Positions 22,011 to 62,350 of a stretch of 64,000 nt of DNA are shown one piece after another. The first letter of the stretch is position 1. Each line of letters begins with the position of its first letter. Location of the stretch: IMG/VR virus record IMGVR_UViG_3300005076_000001, positions 23,361-87,360 of that record; one strand, given 5' to 3'. This stretch comes from a virus (lineage: Duplodnaviria > Heunggongvirae > Uroviricota > Caudoviricetes). The notes below the pieces were generated by a model. The model ran no database searches and was not told the DNA's origin. It saw nothing but the letters and a program-made list of their open reading frames with translations. The translations under genes were made by a program, and so were the position numbers.

Positions 22011-22448
22011 ATGACTCAAGTTAAAAAACAATTTATAATTTCCGAACGTTCTAACAGTGCTTTGAAAGGCGTTGATAAACGTCTGCAAGATGTTGTTGCA
22101 TTGGCAATTAAATACACAACAGAAGATTTCTTTGTCAATGAAGGATTGCGCAGCCTAGAACGGCAGCGCCTGCTTGTCAAGCAAGGAGCTTCTAAAACAA
22201 TGAACAGCAAGCACATTACAGGTCATGCTGTTGACCTTATTCCTGTTGCTGTCAAAGGTGTTATTCCTTGGAACGACACAAAGAAATTTGATGCAATCGG
22301 TAAGGCAATGATGAAGGCAGCAGCAGAGCTTGGTGTTAAAATTCGTTGGGGCAAGGATTGGAATGGGAACGGAATTGCGGATGAGAAGTTTGTAGATAGT
22401 CCTCATTTTGAATTGCTTGATACAGCATCTTTTGTGAAAGGTTTCTAA
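22011..22448 (+). CDS. endolysin, L-alanyl-D-glutamate peptidase (peptidase M15 family)
   Basis: SKHITGHAVDL...DSPHFEL Zn-binding H-x6-D...H signature of M15/VanY-type phage endolysins. Confidence 0.8.
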   Translation: MTQVKKQFIISERSNSALKGVDKRLQDVVALAIKYTTEDFFVNEGLRSLERQRLLVKQGASKTMNSKHITGHAVDLIPVAVKGVIPWNDTKKFDAIGKAMMKAAAELGVKIRWGKDWNGNGIADEKFVDSPHFELLDTASFVKGF

Positions 22449-33640: not shown

Positions 33641-33960
33641 TCTTCCTTCGCCTCCCAATAAGCATCAACATCAAACTTATTGTTCTTGTCAAACACCACT
33701 GTCACACGACCACCACAACCATCATAGCAATTCTTGAAAATAATGTAGCTTTCTGTTTCTACAGGTGTACCATGATGCTCGACACCATATGTGTTTCCAT
33801 TTCCGTTGACCAAGTCTTCTTTGTTGTTGTCTGTGTTCCAGTGGACAGCACTGGAAACTGAATACCACAAACAGTCTGTCAAATCGTCAATGTCAGGTGT
33901 GATGAATTTGCTCAGTAAGGTGGCTGCTGCCAGCATTTCTTTAACGTCGTTGTCAGTCAT
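33637..33960 (-). CDS. hypothetical protein
   Basis: 107 aa ORF. Confidence 0.3.
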   Translation of the reverse strand: MTDNDVKEMLAAATLLSKFITPDIDDLTDCLWYSVSSAVHWNTDNNKEDLVNGNGNTYGVEHHGTPVETESYIIFKNCYDGCGGRVTVVFDKNNKFDVDAYWEAKEE

Positions 33961-34585
33961 TTTGTTGCTCCTCTTTCACTTCATACTCCATCAGTGCCTT
34001 ATAAACCCGTGGGTCAACTCTGCCCTTGTAGTGCTCAGCAACAAGCTTCACATACTTTTCCTTTTCTATTTTAAAGAAAGCAAAAGCAGCTTCAGGTGTT
34101 GTGAACTCCTTGTAAACTGTACTCAGGTTCATCGCACCTCTGCGGATTGTTGCAGAATAACGTTCGCCTCTTGACGTGAGTGCAACACCAGTCGGCAACC
34201 CTTTAGTGCATTTCCTGTTCACTTGCAGCAAATTGTTTATAGCAACAGGTACAAAGACACATGTCTCTGGGGAGTATGCTTTACCATTACCGTTAGCCAA
34301 AACATCTTTGTCTAGGTGAAACATCTTTCCGTTATCGTCTAAGGAACAGTATCCAATCTGAGTTTGGCACCACTCCACAAAAGACTGAAAATCGGTAAAG
34401 AGATTAAGAGTCCCTTCATAATAACTCACTTTCGAGTCACTACCAACTGTTCTCCTACGTACACTATAGAATAGTGCAGCAGCGTGCGTTGTTACTTTTA
34501 CATAGGGTTCAGGGTTAAATGCTTTTACCCACAAACCATTCACTTTAAAATCTGGAACATTCTTTCTTGTTATGTATCTGCTCAT
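33953..34585 (-). CDS. HNH-type homing endonuclease with C-terminal AP2 DNA-binding domain
   Basis: FQSFVEW...HLDKDVLANGNGKAYSPETCVFVPVAINN nuclease-like region then AP2-like GVALTSRGERYSATIRRGAMNLSTVYKEFTTPEAAFAFF; paralogous to 45258..46568 and 59761..60342. Confidence 0.5.
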   Translation of the reverse strand: MSRYITRKNVPDFKVNGLWVKAFNPEPYVKVTTHAAALFYSVRRRTVGSDSKVSYYEGTLNLFTDFQSFVEWCQTQIGYCSLDDNGKMFHLDKDVLANGNGKAYSPETCVFVPVAINNLLQVNRKCTKGLPTGVALTSRGERYSATIRRGAMNLSTVYKEFTTPEAAFAFFKIEKEKYVKLVAEHYKGRVDPRVYKALMEYEVKEEQQND

Positions 34586-34642: not shown

Positions 34643-35719
34643 TCACATCCAGTGAATGCTCATTTTGTTTTGCAAACCCAGCGGGGCAAACGGAATATCC
34701 GACTCCAGATCAGCCAAAGGGGTGGCAACTTTCTGTTGCACTTCCTTCTTAACAACTGGAGGAGCAACGTCTTCTACACCATCCTCACCAAGCAGAGTAA
34801 AGATTTCTTGAAGCTCTTTGTTACCTGCAATAGCCTTGGCAGACAGCTCTTTAGCTTTCTCAATCAGTGCTGCTTCATCCATACGTTGCTGAATTGCTTT
34901 TTGCATTTCAGAGCCAGCATAATCTTCAGCCAGAACAATCTTACGCAGGTCAGCCTGACGAATCAGATCAAACTTGCAGCTACCACCGAGTTCTTCTTTT
35001 GGCTCCAGCAGGTCAGTGTCGGTGAAGCTGATTGCCTTCGGAGGAACCAGAGGAGCCGGAGGATTCATGCCTTTCATCAGAGGAACAGGAGATTTCAGAG
35101 AGACATTGTGATAGGTTTTACCATCACTCTTACCAACACTCTCCTTCACTTCCACGTTCATCATAAATGGCTTCCCAAGCAGCAAACCAACATTGTTCAG
35201 GTTTGGGTTGTTGAAGTCAGCAGCAAAAATCACATCCTTAACCAGTTGACCATCTTTGGTTTTGGTTACAGCAGCCAGCTTTGCCCACATAGAAGCAGGG
35301 GCCAGAGTCCAAGGCTTACCTTTGATATAATTGCCTTGGGTATCTCGCGGTGCGACCTCTACGTAGTTGAGACCTTCAGAGATAGCGTAGCCAACTTTGT
35401 GCAGCGGCAGACGAATGTTCTTAACACCAATGTCGTTGCCGTAGTCATGTGTCTGGTCTAGAAGGTCAACATAGGCAGCAATCTTCCGTTCTAAGCCTTT
35501 GTCGCCTTCTTTCGGAATCAAGATTTTCTTGCTACCATCTTCATTCAGTTCTACAACACCTTTACTGTCTTTGGCAAACTTAGGCTGTTTGCGATGCTTA
35601 CCCAGATAAACAAGCAGGCTGACAGCAACAGCATTCAAACCATCTTCAGGAATTACAGGAACGAATTCCTTCTGCTCAGTGTTGTTGGAGGTAGTGCTTA
35701 CTTTACGTTCGTTAAACAT
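34643..35719 (-). CDS. putative ssDNA-binding protein (highly expressed early protein)
   Basis: 358 aa from ATG 35719 with AAAGGAAA RBS; basic N-terminus MFNERKVST; C-terminal acidic tail with DIPF motif; optimal codon usage; own promoter and terminator. Confidence 0.35.
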   Translation of the reverse strand: MFNERKVSTTSNNTEQKEFVPVIPEDGLNAVAVSLLVYLGKHRKQPKFAKDSKGVVELNEDGSKKILIPKEGDKGLERKIAAYVDLLDQTHDYGNDIGVKNIRLPLHKVGYAISEGLNYVEVAPRDTQGNYIKGKPWTLAPASMWAKLAAVTKTKDGQLVKDVIFAADFNNPNLNNVGLLLGKPFMMNVEVKESVGKSDGKTYHNVSLKSPVPLMKGMNPPAPLVPPKAISFTDTDLLEPKEELGGSCKFDLIRQADLRKIVLAEDYAGSEMQKAIQQRMDEAALIEKAKELSAKAIAGNKELQEIFTLLGEDGVEDVAPPVVKKEVQQKVATPLADLESDIPFAPLGLQNKMSIHWM

Positions 35720-35798
35720 ATTGGTATTTCCTTTCATTTAAAATTAAACAATGTGCTTCCACACATTTCTTCGTAGCTGTGTATATCACTACAAAAAC

Positions 35799-35837
35799 AT
35801 TGTCTCACAGATTTGAGAATTTGTCAAGCAATTATTG
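35799..35837 (-). promoter_or_regulatory. early promoter TTGACAAAT-N-TCTGTG family (minus strand) plus GCAATAATTGC palindrome
   Basis: minus-strand TTGACA (plus 35822-35827) N17 GACAAT; shares TTGACAAAT...TCTGTG with promoters at 41063 and 41966. Confidence 0.45.
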
Positions 35838-36614
35838 CATAATCATGTTGCCCTTGAAATCAGAAGGGACAATAAAAACTTTATTCTGACTCTTTGCCAA
35901 CTCCTTCATCACATCCAGCTGTTTATCTGCCAGCAGTTTACTATCCAAAGATTGAGAACGCACACGCAGAGTTTCCGCTTCGACTTTAGCCACTTCCAGT
36001 TCATTCTGAGCTTGCTTCTTACGGTTTTCAGAGGCAGCTACAGCACGAATACTATCTTCTACAGTTGCATCAGTGAGAATGTTGGTGATGTTCACACGCT
36101 CAACGATGATGGTGCCTTTGTCACTCTTGTCAAACTCTTTCTGCAAACTCTCTTTAATGAAAGCTTCCATTTCAGTGCGTTTGTCATTCAACTGCATACT
36201 CGGCACTTTAGCTACAGCTTCGTTAGCAGCAGAGCGAGCCACCTGTTCCACCAAGTTGTACGCTGGATAGCTGATGCTAGTCTCAGCGTCGTAGGCTGTC
36301 GAATTGCTGTATTTCACCACCAAATCAGCAACAGAGGCAGGGTTTACAGCGTAGTAAATGGTTACATCGAAGTCTTGCAGACGTAGGTTGTCGGCTGCTT
36401 TCGGCTTCAGATCAGCCAGTGTAACAGGGATTTGTTTCACAGTGTATTTGCGAACATCCGATGTAACAGAGGTGTAGAACCCTTGTTGTAGTTCTTGTTG
36501 CTCCACTTCACCGCTGAAGGTGGTGCGAACACCAACTTGACCAGTTTCCACAGAGCCACATGCAGCCAGAGACATTGCCACAACAACAGACATTACGATA
36601 GATTTGATTTTCAT
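35832..36614 (-). CDS. SPFH/Band-7 (flotillin/HflC-like) domain lipoprotein
   Basis: Signal peptide MKIKSIVMSVVVAMSLAAC with lipobox; SPFH-like core DFDVTIYYAVNPASVADLVVKY...; C-terminal coiled coil; strong RBS AAGGAGAGAAG. Confidence 0.65.
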   Translation of the reverse strand: MKIKSIVMSVVVAMSLAACGSVETGQVGVRTTFSGEVEQQELQQGFYTSVTSDVRKYTVKQIPVTLADLKPKAADNLRLQDFDVTIYYAVNPASVADLVVKYSNSTAYDAETSISYPAYNLVEQVARSAANEAVAKVPSMQLNDKRTEMEAFIKESLQKEFDKSDKGTIIVERVNITNILTDATVEDSIRAVAASENRKKQAQNELEVAKVEAETLRVRSQSLDSKLLADKQLDVMKELAKSQNKVFIVPSDFKGNMIMQ

Positions 36615-36624
36615 ACTTCTCTCC

Positions 36625-36813
36625 TTAATTAAAATTACCAACAAAAGACAACACAGCACAAACTACAGCACCTATAGCAAGAAGTAGAGAGATGGACAAC
36701 CCTTTCTTCCCAATTTCAATTTTCTCCCTCAAGCTTGTCTTGCGTAGAACATCATAACAGATGTACACAAGAACACAAGACATAAAGTAAAGAATAAGTG
36801 TTTTTGCAATCAT
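36625..36813 (-). CDS. small 2-TM membrane protein (NfeD-like partner candidate of SPFH gene)
   Basis: 62 aa, two hydrophobic helices; immediately upstream, same strand as SPFH gene. Confidence 0.4.
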   Translation of the reverse strand: MIAKTLILYFMSCVLVYICYDVLRKTSLREKIEIGKKGLSISLLLAIGAVVCAVLSFVGNFN

Positions 36814-37082: not shown

Positions 37083-37242
37083 TCTTCTCCTTTCTCAAAC
37101 AGTTTAACAGCCTTCTTCAAATCCTTGAGTGTAAATTGACCAATCCCACGAACAGGTTCGTCAGCTTTTACAACAACACTCTCCTTTTCAGGCTGGTCTG
37201 GGTCAAAAACAATCACTTCGCCACCACACACTTGAATTGTAA

Positions 37243-37815
37243 TCATATTTCTTCTCCTTTGTTAACAACATTCCCGAACACATTTATGAGTTCACTCTCA
37301 GCCCCATACAACATAACAGCAACATTCTTATCCTGCTCAAACATTGTTGCTATGTCTTCATTATCTCCCAATCCCCACTCTTTGTCAAGAGAATTTAGAA
37401 GCTTTTCCACTTGCCCAAGCTCCATACGAAGCTGTTTGGCGTTGTAAGAAGCATAACCCATCTCGTACACATAGTCAAGCAGATTGCTTGCATTGACACG
37501 CATAATGACAGTGAAAATGTCCTTCATGCCAACAAGAATGCCTTTTGGGAATTTCTTGTTCTTTACACGGAAATTGATAGGGAGGGCAATATCTAAAGTT
37601 GCCCTGTCCGTCCGTGTGTGGTTTTGCTTCTTAACAATAGCTGCTGTGCAGGCCACAACCACTTTCTGCCATGTTTCAGGAAGAATAGGAGAAAGACGTG
37701 AGTCTATGTATTTAGAAAAACGCCCAACCCCTATTGCATCCTTAGCTTTCTTGTACATCTGTTCCGCTGAGGAACAGCCCTCGAAGAAGGATGTTCCCTG
37801 CCGGTAGTATTCCAT
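37243..37815 (-). CDS. hypothetical protein
   Basis: Track ORF extends to 37917 but that overlaps DNA pol exon 2; internal ATG 37815 has GAGAGGGA RBS. Confidence 0.35.
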   Translation of the reverse strand: MEYYRQGTSFFEGCSSAEQMYKKAKDAIGVGRFSKYIDSRLSPILPETWQKVVVACTAAIVKKQNHTRTDRATLDIALPINFRVKNKKFPKGILVGMKDIFTVIMRVNASNLLDYVYEMGYASYNAKQLRMELGQVEKLLNSLDKEWGLGDNEDIATMFEQDKNVAVMLYGAESELINVFGNVVNKGEEI

Positions 37816-38051: not shown

Positions 38052-38277
38052 CAATCTGTTATGTGGTTCGTTACACCACCTTGCATCCCTGCAAGTGTCG
38101 GACTATATCACCATCTCTCACGAGATGCCCCCCGTTTCGAGAGCACTTGCTCCCTACGCCTTTCGGCTAGTCTCTAGGCTTTCAGCTTTCGCTGTTTAGC
38201 ACGGTAAGTTAGCTGTTCTAGCTTTCTCCGTTTAGAGGGGTTTTCAATACGCATCACTGCGCAAGGCCACAATGTCT
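38052..38277 (-). other. group I self-splicing intron (226 nt, no ORF) in DNA polymerase gene
   Basis: 5' exon ends in U (..UACUACCAU); intron starts AGACAUUGUGG (IGS GUGG pairs CCAU giving U.G); R-like GAGACUAG (plus 38167-38174) and S-like GAUAUAGUCC (plus 38100-38109) P7 elements; terminal G; splicing restores HDE motif. Confidence 0.7.
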
Positions 38278-40995
38278 ATGGTAGTAGATTACGCGTTTAA
38301 CTTCGTAACCTTTATAAATATAGTAAGGTCGCCCCTTATCGTCAATGTACATCTCGCCCAACCATGTATCCATGAAACAACAAGCAAGGTCACAAGCAAT
38401 AGCACCACCAGACTGCATGATGATATTAATCAGGCTGTGTTTACTGCGTGTGTTCAGCAACCGTCCATCAATAGCAGGCAGGTGTTTCTTCTTGCCCTTG
38501 GTTTCCCAATACTTCTCCACATTCTCCTTCAGAGCCTTCAGCGCAGGGTTTGAGTCCCAGAACGCATCGTACAGTCGCTTACCTTCTGCCTCCGGCTTAC
38601 CAAGCGTTGTGGCCAGTTTCTTAGGTGAAGAACCATACAACACTGCGTAGCCACCGCTTTTTGCTTTGTTACGCCAAGGTTTGAAACGCGGGTCATCCTT
38701 GTTAAAGTCCACAGCCTTGTAGTCAAAGCCTTTCGTCTCTTCTGGGAAGAAGCTGCATGCCACTTTACTGTGAACATCACCCTCAAGCAACTCTTTTGCG
38801 TATGCACCGTTGTCGTACTTGTGCGTATTACCTGTAATGGTGATGGTGTTGCCCTGCTTCATGACCCAACTACCATGTTTTGTCTTTGGGCACCACACTT
38901 CCTCTGTGCCATAGTAAGATACTGCCATACGCTGCATGGTCACAAAACCTTTCCTGTTCACAGTGACAGTGTTATGTTTACAGCGTACATATTCTCTTGT
39001 AGCAACCGTCAGCATAGCGTCTGTAGCAAGGTACGTGGCGGTCAGGGCGGCATCAAAGTGCTTGCCTTCATTCTGAGAGAATCTCCACCGACCATCCGGA
39101 TTTCCAGCACAAACCTTGTGTGCATTTTCTCCTTCAAAATGACCATCTGCTACCAAGAAACCCTCCAACCACCTTTGCGTTTCTGCCAGTGATTGTTGAC
39201 AGATTCGTTCAGTCCAGTCAATAGAATACTTACCTTTTGCAAACTGCATGTCACAACCGCTGTAGTCGAGTGTTGGTGCATTTACAATAATGTTACAACA
39301 TGTATTCAAGTCTTTTGTCTCAACAACTCTGTCCTCGTAAGTTCGTTTTTGCGTGTTTCTGTATTTTACAAACCACCTGTGGTTGGCAGTTGCTCGTACA
39401 GAAAAATGCGAGTTGCTAATAGTATATGTTTCGGCATCAGAGAACTTGTGCTTGCTTTCTAGTGGTGTCCACTCTTTCTTTTTAGTCTCTGGGTTATATG
39501 CAAGTATATCTTCACCAATGACAAGCTCATTAAAAAACTTCCAACCTGTACGGGTTAGTGCTTGTGCCGACATTGGGACGCAATAATGGCCTGTAATGCG
39601 TTGTTCCAAACCACTGCTGTCAGAGGCTGCAATAACGAAGCCATCTTCAGCACAAAACAAACGCCTAAACTCTTCACCATACACACTACCGACACGAGGC
39701 ACGTTGCAAATTTCACTATGCGCTTGACGATGTGTGTTGGTAATTTTTGTGCTCTTAGGGTTTAGTCGTCCATCCCAATCAAGACGCCACACACCCAACC
39801 AACCCTCAAGCACAGAGAGACGATTACGCAAAGACAGAAAGCGAACAACGTCTTTAGCCAACTCACCTTCAAGAATTTCAAGATTAGGACACAGCTTGCC
39901 CATCTCCTGTAGCTTCGGTGATGTTTGGATAACATCTTTTGTACGCTCGTCTCTGACAGCTTTGCCTTTTGCGTCCTTCTTAATGTTCCAGAAAGTAGGC
40001 ACCCAACCATGCTCTTCTTGTAGCCAAGTTTTCAGATCGTCTTGGTGTTTAAGTTCCATTGGAAGCATAACGTCAAGAACAAGGTTGCCAACAACTTTAT
40101 ACTGCTTACCGTAAAACTCAACAACACCTGTGCTCACCTCTTTACCGTTATGCTTTGCAATAAAGTTTTGCATATGGTGTGAGTAAGAGCCGTCTTTCTT
40201 GTAAGGGTTTTTAGGAAGTGTGTATTCCTTTTCTTCACCTTTGTTCGGACTGCGTGGTGGCAGCTTAGGCTCAACCTTCTCCTTGAGTTCTTCAATCTCT
40301 TTCTCAAGGCGTTCTTTCACCTCAAGAGCAAGCTTCTTGTCAAAAGCATGACCCGTAAACTCTTGTGCTTTCATGAGGAAGAAGCTTTTCTGCCCCATGC
40401 GATAGCTAGGGTGAACCCACGCATCACCGTACATGTCAACAGCCTTACGCCATAGATCGAAGAACACAACAATGTTTGCGTCAACGTCTTGGTCACAATA
40501 CTCTTCCATCAACGGGTGATAGAAAGAAAACTCATGTCCTTTTGTTTCATTGCCAACCATCACACCAATGTCTACGAGGCGCTGGCGATAGTCGATCTTG
40601 TGACTACCAGCTTTGCGCGACAAAGCATCCAAACTGTGTGACTCAAGATCAGGTTCAAGGTACATGGATAGGTAGAGTGTGTCCCAAAACACCACCTCAA
40701 TACCTGCCAGCGTGTCTTTGCCTTTTTTGCCGACGCGAGGTTGTAGGTCGAAATGCTTCCACAACACCCACACATCATAGCCCAAGATATTGTGGCCTAC
40801 GATCAGCGGTTTATCAAACTGAGACAAAAAGTCTACAACGGCTTGTCTCACTTCCTCTTTTGTCATCTGGAACGGACGAAGGCTCAGTATCTTACTGCCA
40901 TCTGCTGTCTTCCAACGCATATACCACACTTGCTTTGATTGCAAATAGAGGTTGTCTGCCTCAATGTCAAATACAATGATGTTACTCCTGTCCAT
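38278..40995 (-). CDS. DNA polymerase, family A (T7 gp5-like) exon 1, with 3'-5' exo domain and an in-frame intein
   Basis: Exo I NIIVFDIEADN, Exo II HNILGYD; motif A DSSGLEQRI; motif B RNKAKSGGYAVLYG; start ATG 40995 with AGGAGAAAG RBS; ORF reads through into intron to TGA 38254. Confidence 0.85.
38827..39582 (-). mobile_element. intein (252 aa) with LAGLIDADG-type motif inserted after pol motif A
   Basis: Begins Cys right after ...EQRITGHY; block B TANHRWF; LEGFLVADGHFEG; ends ...ITITGN followed by Thr; flanks align contiguously to T7 gp5 (AHFMARFDNGEYAHEILNGDIHTK vs GHY/THKYDNGAYAKELLEGDVHSK). Confidence 0.75.
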
Positions 40996-41024
40996 ACTTT
41001 CTCCTCTGTAAACACTCACAAGAA

Positions 41025-41047
41025 GGGACAGCACTATCGCCTGTCCC
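41025..41047 (-). promoter_or_regulatory. 5' UTR hairpin of DNA polymerase mRNA
   Basis: GGGACAG-9nt-CTGTCCC perfect stem between promoter and RBS. Confidence 0.35.
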
Positions 41048-58765: not shown

Positions 58766-58932
58766 CAAGTGGCTACTATTTCATTAAGCTAGCTACAAAC
58801 GTAGCCCTTCCAATGTACGTCATATGTCTTGACGAACGCATGTATATTTGGCAGAATGGGAAACAACAATGGCTGCAATTGAAGAAAGAGCAAATAATGG
58901 GTGAACGTCTTACGTATGAGGGAGATAAGTAA
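58747..58932 (+). CDS. hypothetical protein
   Basis: 61 aa ORF. Confidence 0.25.
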   Translation: MLGKAMTSGYYFIKLATNVALPMYVICLDERMYIWQNGKQQWLQLKKEQIMGERLTYEGDK

Positions 58933-59768
58933 TGCTATACAACATCCTCAAACAACTTCAAGAAACACCGAGTACAAACGATAAGCTTTCTATTTTGAAA
59001 GCAAACAAAGACAATGAGACATTGAAAGAATACATGCGTCTTGTTTGTTGCCCTTCTGTCTCGTTTTATATTACAGCAAAGACGTTTCCTGTTGTATCTA
59101 AGATAGGGACACATACATTCCAGTCTCTCATGAATGCTGGGTATTCTCTTGGTACAAAAGAACTTTCTCAACGTCATGTTACAGGACAGGCAGCAAAGAA
59201 TTTTATTGTTGCTACAATGGAAGACCTTGATGAAGAGCACCAACAACTGTACAAAATGCTTCTTCTCAAGGACATTCGTGCGAAAGTGGGGGCAACACTT
59301 GTGAATAAGGTGTGGCCTAATTTGTGTGTCTCTGTTCCATATCAACGCTGCTCTCTTCCAGATGAAAAGACATTGGAGAAGTTTAAGAATGGAGAACAGT
59401 TCTTTGTTCAACTTAAATACGATAGTTCTTTTGCATATGCGTTCAAGTCTCCACGTGAATTTGCCCTTATTACAAGGGCCGGGTCACGATACCCCAAAGA
59501 AATTGCAAGTATCATTACAGAAGACATTCCAGAGAACTACGTGTTGATGGGTGAGTTAGAGGTTGTTTACAAAGGGGAAGTCCTTTCTAGAAAAGATGGC
59601 TGTGGGGTGCTAAATAGCTTGTTGAACGGAGGGCCGTTACCTTCTGGTTGTGGGCTTCAATTAACTGCGTGGGATGTTGTCAGTGTTGAAGAATTTTCAA
59701 AAAGTAAGAGTGACAAACCGTACTGGGAAAGACTCAACCTGCTGAGGGGGATGTTCACGAATGAGTGA
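58932..59768 (+). CDS. ATP-dependent DNA ligase (T4 gp30-like), N-terminal fragment (through motif IIIa)
   Basis: MLYNILKQLQETPSTNDKLSILKANKDNETLKEYMRL ~ T4 ligase N-terminus; VNKVWPNL; motif I region QLKYDSSF; LITRAGSRY; ends where T4 ligase continues. Confidence 0.7.
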   Translation: MLYNILKQLQETPSTNDKLSILKANKDNETLKEYMRLVCCPSVSFYITAKTFPVVSKIGTHTFQSLMNAGYSLGTKELSQRHVTGQAAKNFIVATMEDLDEEHQQLYKMLLLKDIRAKVGATLVNKVWPNLCVSVPYQRCSLPDEKTLEKFKNGEQFFVQLKYDSSFAYAFKSPREFALITRAGSRYPKEIASIITEDIPENYVLMGELEVVYKGEVLSRKDGCGVLNSLLNGGPLPSGCGLQLTAWDVVSVEEFSKSKSDKPYWERLNLLRGMFTNE

Positions 59769-60342
59769 TAATTTACACTGGGAAGATTATTTCTACTACG
59801 ACGAAACAAGTCCTAGTTGTCTAAGGTGGAAAGTTTCTGTGTACAGTGGATGTGGGTTAAAAACACAGAATGTCAGAGAAAACCAAGAAATCCAGCATAA
59901 AGATCGTGAAGGGTATTTTGTTGTTGGGTTGATGAAGAGGAGACATAAAGTACATAGAATAATCTATGAGATGTTCTACGGAGAAATCCCAGAGGGCATG
60001 GTGATAGACCACGTAGATAGAGACAAAGAAAACAACAAGATTGAGAATCTGCGCGCAGTTTCATGCAAAGTTAATTCCAGAAATACTAAAAGATACTCCT
60101 CCAACACGTCTGGGGTGACAGGGGTTAGTTTGCAAACCTCTTATAAGTCTTCAGGAAATTACACAGCGTATGTTGCAAATTGGACAGATTTAGAAGGAGT
60201 AAAACACGGAAAGTCATTTTCCATCCTTAAATATGGGGAAGAATTGGCATTGAAATTGGCCGAGGAGTATAGACGCAGTAAGATTGCGGAGCTTAATGCG
60301 CAAGGAGCTGGGTACAATGACACACATGGGGATGTGCTATGA
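59761..60342 (+). CDS. HNH_3 homing endonuclease with AP2 domain, inserted between ligase halves
   Basis: IDHVDRDKENNKIENLRAVSCKVNSRN HNH_3 motif; AP2-like GVTGVSLQTSYKSSGNYTAYVANW...ELALKLAEEYRR; own SD GAGGGGGA; ATG overlaps ligase-N stop. Confidence 0.75.
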   Translation: MSDNLHWEDYFYYDETSPSCLRWKVSVYSGCGLKTQNVRENQEIQHKDREGYFVVGLMKRRHKVHRIIYEMFYGEIPEGMVIDHVDRDKENNKIENLRAVSCKVNSRNTKRYSSNTSGVTGVSLQTSYKSSGNYTAYVANWTDLEGVKHGKSFSILKYGEELALKLAEEYRRSKIAELNAQGAGYNDTHGDVL

Positions 60343-60839
60343 AAAATATTAAACTCGCAGAAACACACACAGTTACGTCACTGGAGGGTGCTTTTGAGAT
60401 CTATTCCAGATATGTTGAGCAAGGTTATGAGGGTGTGATTATTAAGACAAAAGATTTTTTGTGGAGTTCGTCTACAAGTAAGGAATGTCTCAAGCTGAAA
60501 GTGGAAGCAGAGATTGACTTGATTTGGACAGACAGTGTGGAAGGCAAGGGGAAAGCTGCCGGAATGCTTGGTGCTATGTGCTTGCAAAGCTCTTGTGGAC
60601 GTGTTAAAGTGGATTGTGGCACTGGCTATACAGATGCACAGCGTAAACAGCTTTGGGAAGAACGTAGCAGCCTGCATGGCTCTGTTGTGACGGTGAAAGC
60701 CAACGACCTCGTCTCGAAGGAAGGCAGCAATGTGTTGTCTCTATTCCTACCTGTGTTCATTGAGCTACGTGAGAAGCAAGAGGCAGACAGCTTGGAACGT
60801 ATTGAGCAAATTTTCAATGCTGCTAAACATATTGCTTGA
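60339..60839 (+). CDS. ATP-dependent DNA ligase C-terminal fragment (motifs IV, V and OB domain)
   Basis: EGVIIK (motif IV), CLKLK (motif V), GKGKAAGMLGAM...LFLPVFIELRE aligns with T4 ligase C-terminus; own SD GGGGA; ATGA overlap with HEG stop. Confidence 0.7.
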   Translation: MKNIKLAETHTVTSLEGAFEIYSRYVEQGYEGVIIKTKDFLWSSSTSKECLKLKVEAEIDLIWTDSVEGKGKAAGMLGAMCLQSSCGRVKVDCGTGYTDAQRKQLWEERSSLHGSVVTVKANDLVSKEGSNVLSLFLPVFIELREKQEADSLERIEQIFNAAKHIA

Positions 60840-61040: not shown

Positions 61041-61390
61041 TGCCTCTGACAACACAAGATTTTCTGTATAAAGGGTACAAGAAATTCAAGTCTGTACTTA
61101 ACAATGCTGATTTTGGTTTGCAACGCGTTGTGCGTGATGAGGAAGGGAATAAGAAATACTTCCTAACCGTGTATGCATACGACTTCAGCACATCACAACA
61201 TCAAGCACTAGCACAGCGAGGGATTGTGTTCTCTTACGAGGTGTGTTTGTATACGGAAGATTTTGCACAAGAAGATGGTTACACTACGTTCCATGTAACA
61301 GGTAGTGTTGAAGACATTGAAACATTTGAAAAGTGGATTGAACACATGTACAATAAGCTGAATTGCGTTATTGATGTTCATAACAACTAA
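61037..61390 (+). CDS. hypothetical protein
   Basis: 117 aa ORF, ATGA overlap. Confidence 0.3.
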   Translation: MMPLTTQDFLYKGYKKFKSVLNNADFGLQRVVRDEEGNKKYFLTVYAYDFSTSQHQALAQRGIVFSYEVCLYTEDFAQEDGYTTFHVTGSVEDIETFEKWIEHMYNKLNCVIDVHNN

Positions 61391-61462
61391 GCCGTAAAAA
61401 CAATAGGGGTATATATGTACATATATACATTTGTTTGCCCCTGTTTTATTTAAGGAGAGAAC

Positions 61463-61627
61463 ATGCTATCATTGTTCATACTATCGTGCTTGTGCCTGTT
61501 GTGTGGACTGCTTGTCTCTCGTCTAGGAGATGACAGCAAGAGTGTTCCATTGGCTCTGCTAGGTTTTGCAGCCCTCATTGTAGGGTTTACAGGTGTGATG
61601 GTGTCGTTAGGGTATGTTGCTGTTTAA
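61463..61627 (+). CDS. small membrane protein (54 aa)
   Basis: hydrophobic ORF with TAAGGAGAGAAC RBS, not in track. Confidence 0.3.
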   Translation: MLSLFILSCLCLLCGLLVSRLGDDSKSVPLALLGFAALIVGFTGVMVSLGYVAV

Positions 61628-61639
61628 AGGAGAAAGAGA

Positions 61640-62350
61640 ATGAATAAAATTGAAGTGTTTGAATGTCCTACGTGCAACACGCTGCATCGCACAGAGAAAG
61701 GTGTGCAAGGGTGCATGAAGCTGCACAAAAAGGCAGAAGATAAGCGTGCTGAAGCTCTTGAGCAGAAAAAGCTAGAACAAGAAATCCGCAACATTCCAGC
61801 ACGAGAGGCAGAAAGCTTGGAGCAATTTCTTGACATGGTGTTGGAGCTACAACATAAGGTGCCACACCTTGTTGAAGAAGGGCATGTTACAGCTTACAAA
61901 ATCACTCGCAACCCTTGGCGCTGGGGTGTTGGTGAAGTGGGGCTGGATGTTACGTTTTGGTATAAGAACAAGAAAAGAACTGGTTGGTTTTCCCCGTCAA
62001 CAGTGATGGATTTCTTCGTTGGTTTTAGAACAGGTAGTGGAAGTGGTAACGGAGAAGATGAAATGTCTCTCCAATGTTATTTCGACATTTCTGTTATTGA
62101 TAAAATGCGAGATAAAATCCAAAAAGAATTGGAGAATAAAGAAGAGCTTTCTGCATTTATTCAGCATGTGCAAGAAGAGAATAACAAAGCATTTTATAAT
62201 AGCCCACATATTGTCGAATTAACTACAAAGATTAAAGCGTTAAATACAGAGCTAAATAGGCTTCGTAATGAACTATTTACTGTTCCGACAGAGAATAAAA
62301 TAAACGAGGAGCGGTTGAAATATACGTGGCAATATATTGATGCCCTTTAA
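61640..62350 (+). CDS. hypothetical protein with N-terminal Zn ribbon and coiled coil
   Basis: CPTCNTLH...GCMKLH then KAEDKRAEALEQKKLEQE. Confidence 0.35.
   Translation: MNKIEVFECPTCNTLHRTEKGVQGCMKLHKKAEDKRAEALEQKKLEQEIRNIPAREAESLEQFLDMVLELQHKVPHLVEEGHVTAYKITRNPWRWGVGEVGLDVTFWYKNKKRTGWFSPSTVMDFFVGFRTGSGSGNGEDEMSLQCYFDISVIDKMRDKIQKELENKEELSAFIQHVQEENNKAFYNSPHIVELTTKIKALNTELNRLRNELFTVPTENKINEERLKYTWQYIDAL

Follow-up and report, generated by a model that had tools for sequence, protein, structure and literature searches.

An SPFH lipoprotein gene and its small two-transmembrane partner form a candidate envelope cassette of phages

Open reading frames (ORFs) for SPFH (Band 7) proteins were listed in phages in 2006 (PMC1524935) and in Vi01-like phages in 2011 (PMC3220722), and later genome papers merely speculate on them (PMC10269572; PMC13239085), one of these stating in 2026 that the presence of such a gene in a phage genome "remains unclear" (PMC13239085). 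In bacteria, SPFH genes are known for their NfeD partners, which Hinderhofer et al. found only for the cytoplasm-facing subfamilies SPFH1, SPFH2 and SPFH5, and not for HflK/C, the p-prohibitins or SPFH3, 4 and 6-12 (PMC2636767). Here we describe a 64,000-nucleotide stretch of tailed-phage DNA (positions 23,361 to 87,360 of IMG/VR record IMGVR_UViG_3300005076_000001; hereafter, the window), in which a gene for an SPFH lipoprotein directly follows a gene for a 62-aa protein with two transmembrane segments, hereafter the hairpin. The closest described family is PHROG 200 (Kuttervirus Vi01, PhiSH19, CBA120 orf126, Det7 gp58, Bue1 gp092), whose members share 32-37% identity with the window's lipoprotein over >90% of its length, have the same lipobox, length and C-terminal tail, and also have an unannotated or poorly annotated two-transmembrane ORF upstream. 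They differ in that identity stays <40% and in surroundings, a replication operon here versus a spanin, HU and helicase nearby in Ackermannviridae, and no homologue has a demonstrated function. The lipoprotein is a new, divergent member of this already known, functionally uncharacterized phage family. A first-pass annotation had placed the two genes at 35832-36813 on one strand, and these positions are right; both genes lie on the (-) strand, which it did not name, and its remark that such genes are poorly characterized in phages agrees with the literature above. We read the locus as a phage-specific two-gene envelope cassette, and would put this reading at slightly less than an even chance. 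Its parts are as follows.

36625-36813, (-) strand: hairpin gene, 62 aa (from the ORF list, hydropathy and loop charge)
36615-36627, (-) strand: gene junction TAAGGAGAGAAGT ahead of the ATG, in which the hairpin stop TAA overlaps the SPFH Shine-Dalgarno AAGGAG (TAAGGAG)
35832-36614, (-) strand: SPFH/Band-7 lipoprotein gene, 260 aa plus stop, with its ATG start at 36614
36558-36614, (-) strand: signal peptide and lipobox, residues 1-19, MKIKSIVMSVVVAMSLAA then C; the mature protein begins CGS
35994-36551, (-) strand: SPFH (Band 7) domain, residues 22-207 (Pfam span)
35892-36068, (-) strand: CC1 (~183-222) and CC2 (~225-241) helices, from the AlphaFold2 model and full-length alignment to cage subunits
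35835-35885, (-) strand: C-terminal tail NKVFIVPSDFKGNMIMQ, with VFIVPSDFKG within it, from alignment conservation

Evidence for a two-gene unit comes from the recurrence of the pair. The region upstream of the SPFH homologues was surveyed in every locus fetched, covering 18 phage or phage-like lineages. In 14 of the 18, the SPFH gene is preceded on the same strand by a two-transmembrane ORF of 53-90 aa, which usually abuts or overlaps the SPFH start. The hairpin is present in the following loci.

Window clade: L005 and L001
Four metagenomic phage contigs with SPFH proteins 58-66% identical: L041, L042, L043 and L045
Burkholderia jumbo phage BCSR5, with a tRNA between the genes: L007
Uncultivated virus genomes (UViGs): L008-L010
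Ten Kuttervirus genomes: L006 and L011-L019
Erwinia phage Bue1: L020
Acinetobacter phages At2 and T4-like PhT2: L021 and L022
Synechococcus phage B23, with a transmembrane-anchored SPFH protein: L024
Acinetobacter 107-kb non-mobilizable plasmids: L046

As a control, all ORFs of 150 aa or more were taken from 19 phage sequences, 174 in total. Twelve have a two-transmembrane ORF of 45-95 aa just upstream, and 11 of these 12 are SPFH genes, while only 1 of ~155 non-SPFH large ORFs has such a neighbor; the pairing is far beyond chance. The genes flanking the cassette differ from phage to phage (a spanin and HU in Kuttervirus; NAPRTase, ProQ and a P-type ATPase in L042/L043; ribonucleotide reductase (RNR) in L041); in this respect the pair acts as an autonomous cassette. 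None of 15 bacterial chromosomal SPFH homologues (Woeseiaceae and Alphaproteobacteria metagenome-assembled genomes, 32-37% identity) has a hairpin ORF, and all 15 are transmembrane-anchored rather than lipoproteins. A bacterial origin of the pair was considered and set aside, as a scan of genome contigs gave only these transmembrane-anchored relatives without a hairpin. Within this sample, the pair appears to be phage-associated and not a borrowed bacterial operon.

The hairpin is easily overlooked. In RefSeq, its ORF occupies an unannotated gap in Salmonella phage dinky (NC_049504; L006 2232-2450, record ~61266-61484) and in Bue1 (NC_048702; L020 1271-1465). It is 69-72 aa long in Kuttervirus and 64 aa in Bue1, and is annotated as hypothetical in a few Kuttervirus records, e.g., SeF6a_053. 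This looks like a systematic annotation omission.

The junction between the two genes points in the same direction. They are separated by 10 nt, and because the hairpin's TAA sits within the SPFH Shine-Dalgarno, they are probably translationally coupled. An identical stop/Shine-Dalgarno junction is found in L001 and L005, and TAATG or TGATG stop/start overlaps occur in L020, L021, L006 and L042. The first-pass annotation had treated the 62-aa gene as paired with the SPFH gene, a view that synteny in distant phages and this overlap uphold. Selection on the two genes was compared within the window clade, using nonsynonymous substitution rates (dN) and their ratio to synonymous rates (dN/dS).

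Window versus L005, dN/dS: hairpin 0.15, SPFH 0.028
Window versus L005, dN: hairpin 0.036, SPFH 0.0083
Window versus L001, amino-acid identity: hairpin 27%, SPFH 83%
Window versus L001, dN: hairpin 0.81, SPFH 0.13

These values indicate that the hairpin is a real gene under purifying selection, and it changes ~4-6 times faster than the SPFH gene. Despite its divergence from L001, both the 62 codons and the C-terminal NFN are retained. Similarity between hairpins of different clades is weak and mostly detectable only where SPFH identity is at least ~50%, the exceptions being BCSR5 with Kuttervirus and Bue1, and a marginal match between the window and Kuttervirus. Such a pattern fits co-divergence at a higher hairpin rate, and is no proof of common descent.

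One could argue that the adjacency is meaningless, the small ORF being neutral, an independently acting membrane peptide, or not expressed at all. Sequence conservation between clades is indeed near noise, four lineages have the SPFH gene without a hairpin, and several genome records leave the hairpin unannotated. Against this stand the 14 of 18 phage-type lineages versus ~1 of 155 other large ORFs, the dN/dS of 0.15, an ORF that stays open at constant length down to 27% amino-acid identity, and the recurrent stop/Shine-Dalgarno or stop/start overlaps. We consider a meaningless adjacency very improbable.

The SPFH lipoprotein itself is well defined by its signals and domain. The mechanical ORF call for the gene runs over 35832-36659 from a GTG (275 aa); the true start, judged from the sequence, is the ATG at 36614, given an AAGGAG 7 nt ahead of it and an alignment in which every homologue begins at that Met. 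Pfam Band_7 (PF01145) matches residues 22-207 with an E value of 3.1e-18 and 66.9 bits against a gathering cut-off of 23.6, so that the hidden Markov model search proposed with the first-pass annotation comes out well above threshold. PF01145 is likewise carried by 41 of 41 database homologues, and the protein matches phrog_200 ("lipoprotein") with an E value of 4.9e-37; NCBIfam added nothing further. The signal peptide MKIKSIVMSVVVAMSLAAC ends in the lipobox L-A-A-C19, and Cys19, almost invariant in the homologue alignment, is predicted to be the lipidated first residue of the mature protein. Of 16 SPFH homologues sampled from phages, plasmids and megacontigs, 15 have a lipobox. The SPFH lipoprotein with strong ribosome-binding site, signal peptide, lipobox and coiled-coil tail that had been described from the sequence was thus recovered (Band_7, AAGGAG, LAAC19 and the modeled helices).

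We generated an AlphaFold2 monomer model from an alignment of 20 homologues, with a predicted local distance difference test (pLDDT) score of 73. The model runs from a strand-rich SPFH1 through an alpha/beta SPFH2 to a helix at 183-222 (40 residues), a second helix at 225-241, and the conserved tail. In solved SPFH cages, CC1 and CC2 form the wall and the cap, respectively. P250, D252 and G255 of the tail are almost invariant in the alignment, and the tail is a candidate cap beta-strand by analogy with prohibitin and erlin, for which a cap layer of beta-strands has been described (PMC12624060). Foldseek aligned the model over its full length (probability 1.00, template modeling score ~0.55, 235-295 alignment columns) to PHB1/2, HflK/C, erlin, stomatin and QmcA, the last at rank 24 among the matches. 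The subunits of prohibitin, HflK/C, erlin, stomatin and QmcA all build closed domes on membranes. The link of the phage protein to solved SPFH structures is by fold comparison only, as phmmer against the PDB returned no match at E <= 1. Only three residues separate the SPFH domain from the lipidated Cys, and for this reason the domain should be seated directly on the periplasmic surface of the anchoring membrane. A published regression that relates the number of subunits to CC1 length (y = 0.1782x + 10.22; PMC12624060) would give a ring of about 17 subunits for a CC1 of ~40 aa, a figure extrapolated below the range of the regression and drawn from a monomer model.

Which membrane would carry the anchor is suggested by the residues after the Cys. 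Under the E. coli Lol rule, Asp at +2 is an inner-membrane retention signal. The window's lipoprotein has Gly-Ser at +2/+3, and Asp at +2 occurs in 0 of 15 lipoboxes of the SPFH homologues. Since no homologue lipobox has Asp at +2, the rule predicts that in an enterobacterial-type host the lipoprotein is destined for the inner leaflet of the outer membrane.

The hairpin, MIAKTLILYFMSCVLVYICYDVLRKTSLREKIEIGKKGLSISLLLAIGAVVCAVLSFVGNFN, has two hydrophobic segments by hydropathy, at residues ~5-20 and ~38-62. The loop between them, DVLRKTSLREKIEIGKK, is 17 residues long with a net charge of +3. About 41 of the 62 residues lie in the two transmembrane segments and 17 in the loop, which leaves no soluble domain to speak of. 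By the positive-inside rule, under which a basic loop lies on the cytoplasmic side, the loop would be cytoplasmic and both short ends periplasmic, with the protein in the inner membrane. Thirteen of 15 hairpins have a loop of net positive charge, and the At2 and PhT2 hairpins carry basic C-terminal tails. Among 5.8 G proteins, the relatives of the window's hairpin are only 62-aa proteins at 76-92% identity and one 48-aa fragment; an exhaustive HMMER search of 1.84 G protein representatives found no relative outside its own cluster, and tblastn against the phage records gave no match. Searches with a joint hairpin profile, including a word-indexed one over 5.8 G proteins, return only proteins of 48-69 aa without Pfam domains, and 12 hairpins from different clades match only phrog_11680 and phrog_23919 among the PHROGs, neither with an assigned function.

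The first-pass annotation had called the 62-aa protein NfeD-like and the pair a bacterial SPFH-NfeD microdomain module. We reject both labels. The NfeD profile search that it proposed was run on the window protein against Pfam, NCBIfam and PHROGs, and no NfeD model matched (E <= 1 for Pfam and NCBIfam); the 12 hairpins gave no NfeD match in Pfam at E <= 10, and the joint profile did not find YbbJ, the solved NfeD, in the PDB. There is no oligonucleotide/oligosaccharide-binding fold (OB-fold) in the hairpin because 62 residues leave no space for one. NfeD partners are known only for the cytoplasm-facing SPFH1, SPFH2 and SPFH5, and the partner here is exported by its Sec/lipobox signal; the 0 of 15 bacterial homologues with a hairpin also speak against such a module. 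The shared operon with an SPFH gene is a feature of NfeD genes, yet is not specific to them.

A related alternative, in line with the first-pass annotation, is that the pair is a phage copy of an NfeD-SPFH operon or an HflK/C mimic, which encloses or titrates the host FtsH at the inner membrane and so shifts the turnover of FtsH substrates. In several NfeD-SPFH operons the partner gene lies upstream of the SPFH gene, as the small gene does in the cassette. The best structural matches of the phage protein include HflK/C and prohibitin, which are the SPFH proteins exposed to the periplasm or intermembrane space and enclosing AAA proteases (PMC2636767; PMC13086221). Some phage homologues are moreover annotated as "regulator of protease activity" or HflC-like (PMC10269572). 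We nevertheless disfavor this alternative and consider it quite unlikely. In addition to the missing NfeD match and OB-fold, no NfeD partners are known for periplasm-facing SPFH subfamilies, a single SPFH gene is present rather than an HflK/HflC pair, and any sequence identity to HflK/C falls below what phmmer detects. The protein has a lipid anchor and not a transmembrane helix, and, as Asp is absent at +2 from all 15 lipoboxes, it would leave FtsH's inner membrane under the E. coli rule.

The genomic surroundings of the cassette were also examined. Candidate promoters lie upstream on the same strand.

37236-37388, (-) strand: sigma-70-like promoter candidates, TTGACA-17-GATAAT at 37388-37360 and TTAACA-18-TACAAT at 37265-37236

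Downstream of them follows a unit of a 55-aa ORF, a 77-aa ORF, the hairpin gene and the SPFH gene. A further sigma-70-like match lies at 35827-35799, just past the SPFH stop, and the first terminator-like hairpin is at 34629-34606. These promoters are consensus matches and weak evidence, with 16 observed versus 9.5 +/- 3.0 expected in shuffles. The cassette sits within a long leftward cluster that includes RNR, a DNA polymerase exonuclease subunit, an exonuclease, an HNH endonuclease, a 364-aa protein resembling single-stranded DNA-binding proteins, DNA polymerase A and an RNA ligase. Its immediate neighbors are the 77-aa phrog_4794 protein beside the hairpin and the 364-aa protein, and the locus has one SPFH gene only. 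Placement in the early region is plausible. The cassette is not part of the lysis cluster, because the endolysin is at 22011-22448 on the opposite strand, 13.4 kb away.

This distance bears on a further alternative, in which the pair is an accessory device for lysis timing or membrane stabilization, either a holin/antiholin- or pinholin-like hairpin with an SPFH ring restraining its lesions, or a ring propping up the envelope in a PspA/flotillin-like manner until the time of lysis. Two transmembrane segments in ~60-90 aa is the format of class II holins, one hairpin has a weak LydA-holin match (E 0.03), the basic C-terminal tails of the At2 and PhT2 hairpins would suit such a role, and in Ackermannviridae the cassette is a few genes from an Rz-like spanin. 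A bacterial SPFH protein with small membrane partners is reported to tie phage-shock protein to the membrane (YdjG/H-YdjI; PMC8581546). That YdjI-type SPFH is cytoplasmic, in contrast to the exported phage protein. The window's hairpin ends in GNFN with no charged tail, its endolysin is remote and on the other strand, and no significant holin match was found in PHROGs or Pfam. We regard this alternative as unlikely. As specific identities, a class II holin or pinholin was rejected for the window's hairpin on the same three grounds, even though the hairpin has the two transmembrane segments of class II holins, and a two-component spanin (Rz/Rz1) was rejected since the hairpin has no periplasmic domain and the lipoprotein is a 260-aa SPFH protein.

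Returning to the envelope cassette, we propose the following course of events. The lipoprotein is, by its signals and modeled fold, exported, lipid-anchored and of the prohibitin/HflK/C structural type, with SPFH1-SPFH2-CC1-CC2 and a conserved tail. Like every solved protein of the same architecture, it would most likely form a closed ring or dome, here on a membrane's periplasmic side. The hairpin would be co-transcribed and probably co-translated with it, and the two may act jointly. Expressed ahead of lysis from host-type promoters, the cassette would then alter the envelope of the already infected cell. Among possible functions we favor, by analogy, superinfection exclusion or protection of the envelope, though taken by itself this is less likely than not. 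T4 Imm and HK97 gp15 are small inner-membrane proteins that block incoming tape-measure pores (bioRxiv 10.64898/2026.03.06.709160), and outer-membrane lipoproteins such as T5 Llp are reported to exclude superinfection (PMC9586334). The fast-evolving hairpin could act at the inner membrane in the way of Imm and gp15, and the lipoprotein in the periplasm in the way of Llp and Cor; the pace at which the hairpin changes is in keeping with an interface under conflict. Two candidates were dropped along the way. T4 Imm as the identity of the hairpin was rejected, since none of the 12 hairpins matches an annotated PHROG, and a Kuttervirus gene labeled "superinfection exclusion" that adjoins the cassette was not used, its 106-aa product having neither a transmembrane helix nor a signal peptide and being unrelated to the hairpin.

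The cassette occurs in Ackermannviridae, T4-like Acinetobacter phages, jumbo phages, cyanophages, phage-like plasmids and an uncultured ~80-kb myovirus clade. It is conceivable, if on balance doubtful, that this is an unrecognized, widespread envelope system of virulent phages, in which a periplasmic SPFH cage and a fast-evolving inner-membrane hairpin provide a new form of superinfection exclusion or protect against membrane-targeting host defenses. A further alternative would make the pair an anti-defense or anti-abortive-infection device, with the periplasmic cage and the hairpin shielding the membrane from depolarizing or permeabilizing host effectors. An autonomous cassette in many unrelated virulent phages at variable, "moron-like" positions, and a hairpin that evolves fast, as in an arms race, are in keeping with it. 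PADLOC gave no match for the SPFH protein or the hairpin (its library holds defense models, not anti-defense ones), we found no literature joining Band 7 proteins to anti-defense, and no target is known. We consider the device improbable.

Several points weigh against the envelope cassette. Function, localization, oligomerization and contact between hairpin and lipoprotein are all deduced from sequence, the AlphaFold2 model is only of moderate confidence, and the ring size is, as noted, an extrapolation. The main difficulty is spatial: an outer-membrane lipoprotein and an inner-membrane hairpin with hardly any periplasmic exposure do not obviously form a physical complex. The Lol sorting rule may also not hold in the actual host. 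Hairpins of distant clades are alike in architecture and have almost no common sequence, so their common descent is weakly supported. The hairpin is missing from four lineages (L002-4, L044, Acinetobacter phage Mithridates and Streptomyces phage Comrade), and because they keep the SPFH gene alone, it is not needed for the SPFH protein as such. In L002-4 (contigs of 144-560 kb), a TnpB gene (IS605-type) lies upstream of the SPFH gene instead of a hairpin, and in L044 the SPFH gene lies inside a TerD/TerD/TerD/TerC cluster. The L002 and L044 SPFH proteins are 65-66% identical to that of the hairpin-bearing L043, and on this ground their hairpin was probably lost secondarily. Lastly, virion proteomics of a Kuttervirus recovered 3 peptides of the SPFH lipoprotein (PMC10892097), which could mean a role other than an intracellular one, or membrane carry-over.

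A number of observations were made on the genomes that carry these genes. The SPFH lipoproteins of L002-L004 and L044 are 56% identical to that of the window and come from very large contigs with mostly Pfam-less genes; the contig sizes and TerD repeats recall Enterobacteriaceae megaplasmids (bioRxiv 10.1101/2025.09.30.679422), a likeness by description. Twenty-seven non-mobilizable A. baumannii plasmids of ~107-108 kb (e.g., NZ_CP035046) carry the cassette (L046 2269-3274) among phage-like neighbors (a 3'-5' exonuclease and many hypothetical proteins), and may be phage-plasmids. Unusual auxiliary genes lie near the cassette in L043 (5066-8725 and 1-1366) and L042 (1-533), namely a split P-type cation ATPase, NAPRTase and a ProQ-domain gene. 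The sole non-SPFH case in the control is in the window, where a 54-aa two-transmembrane ORF (61463-61627, (+) strand) precedes a 236-aa ORF (61640-62350, (+) strand) with a weak, coiled-coil-type SbcC match.

In the window itself, megablast of the locus and of the surrounding 24 kb against 50,697 phage records gave no match; the portal protein is ~41% identical to those of Pseudomonas PAK_P1-like myoviruses, and no cultured phage is closely related. The 364-aa protein encoded immediately after the SPFH gene (34643-35737, (-) strand) has DIPF near its C-terminus followed by 17 extra residues, and matches only PHROGs without an assigned function; its L001 counterpart is 214 aa long and ends EEDIPF, the kind of acidic tail that single-stranded DNA-binding proteins typically have. 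The DNA polymerase A ORF (38254-41034, (-) strand) is 926 aa versus 704 aa in L001, with an internal insertion of ~220 aa. It gave no intein, Hint or homing-endonuclease match in Pfam at E <= 1e-3, and its abrupt end (…YYHRHCGLAQ) suggests that the gene is interrupted or split. The ATP-dependent DNA ligase (58932-60839, (+) strand) is split into an N-part (58932-59768) and a C-part (60339-60839), both phrog_114, by an HNH endonuclease ORF (59761-60342) that looks like a homing-endonuclease insertion. A second HNH gene lies at 33953-34585 on the (-) strand.

We found no description of a small hairpin partner in the literature, and this conserved component, often missed by annotation pipelines and without a counterpart at the sampled bacterial chromosomal relatives, appears to be unreported. 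Its recognition turns an orphan annotation into a defined two-gene system, one that exists in cultivable phages (CBA120, Det7, Vi01) and has a fast-evolving component of the kind expected at a phage-phage or phage-host interface. The correction also concerns an "NfeD-SPFH / FtsH control" label that would otherwise spread. Should the envelope system prove true, it would be the first function for phage SPFH proteins, unexplained since 2006. To our knowledge, a ring assembled on the periplasmic face via a lipid anchor would be the first lipoprotein-anchored SPFH cage, of interest to the structural biology of membrane microdomains.

Set beside described systems, the phage protein is closest in build to E. 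coli HflK/C-FtsH and mitochondrial PHB1/2, with which it shares the SPFH1-SPFH2-CC1-CC2-tail order and an SPFH domain on the periplasmic or intermembrane-space side. HflK/C and PHB1/2 are hetero-oligomers of two paralogues with N-terminal transmembrane anchors in the inner membrane, whereas the phage has a single gene, a lipid anchor and no inner-membrane retention signal, and FtsH binding would be a matter of analogy only. The SPFH-NfeD operons (QmcA-YbbJ, FloT-YuaF, Pyrococcus PH1511-PH1510) similarly place a membrane protein gene in one operon with an SPFH gene, but NfeD has a C-terminal OB-fold, PF01957 and a cytoplasm-facing SPFH1/2/5 partner, and the 62-aa hairpin has none of these. B. 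subtilis YdjG/YdjH-YdjI (SamGHI; PMC8581546; bioRxiv 10.64898/2026.02.06.704340) likewise combines an SPFH protein with small non-NfeD membrane proteins in one operon; it is bacterial, its YdjI is cytosolic and recruits PspA, and it has no sequence kinship with the hairpin.

The exclusion proteins (Imm and gp15; T5 Llp and phi80 Cor) have the same format, in which a virulent phage makes, before lysis, a small inner-membrane protein that evolves fast, a lipoprotein facing the periplasm, or both. They have no sequence or PHROG kinship with the cassette, and Llp and Cor are ~60-80 aa and not SPFH proteins, so that this is a likeness of format and no evidence of function. Lastly, Pasteurella multocida PM0222, unlike the cassette, is carried by a temperate element, and work on it has concerned virulence; it is an HflK/C-like SPFH protein of a prophage island, found in outer-membrane vesicles and acting through TLR1/2 signaling (PMC9872710). 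Likened by description only, its release in vesicles is compatible with an outer-membrane location of the phage lipoprotein.

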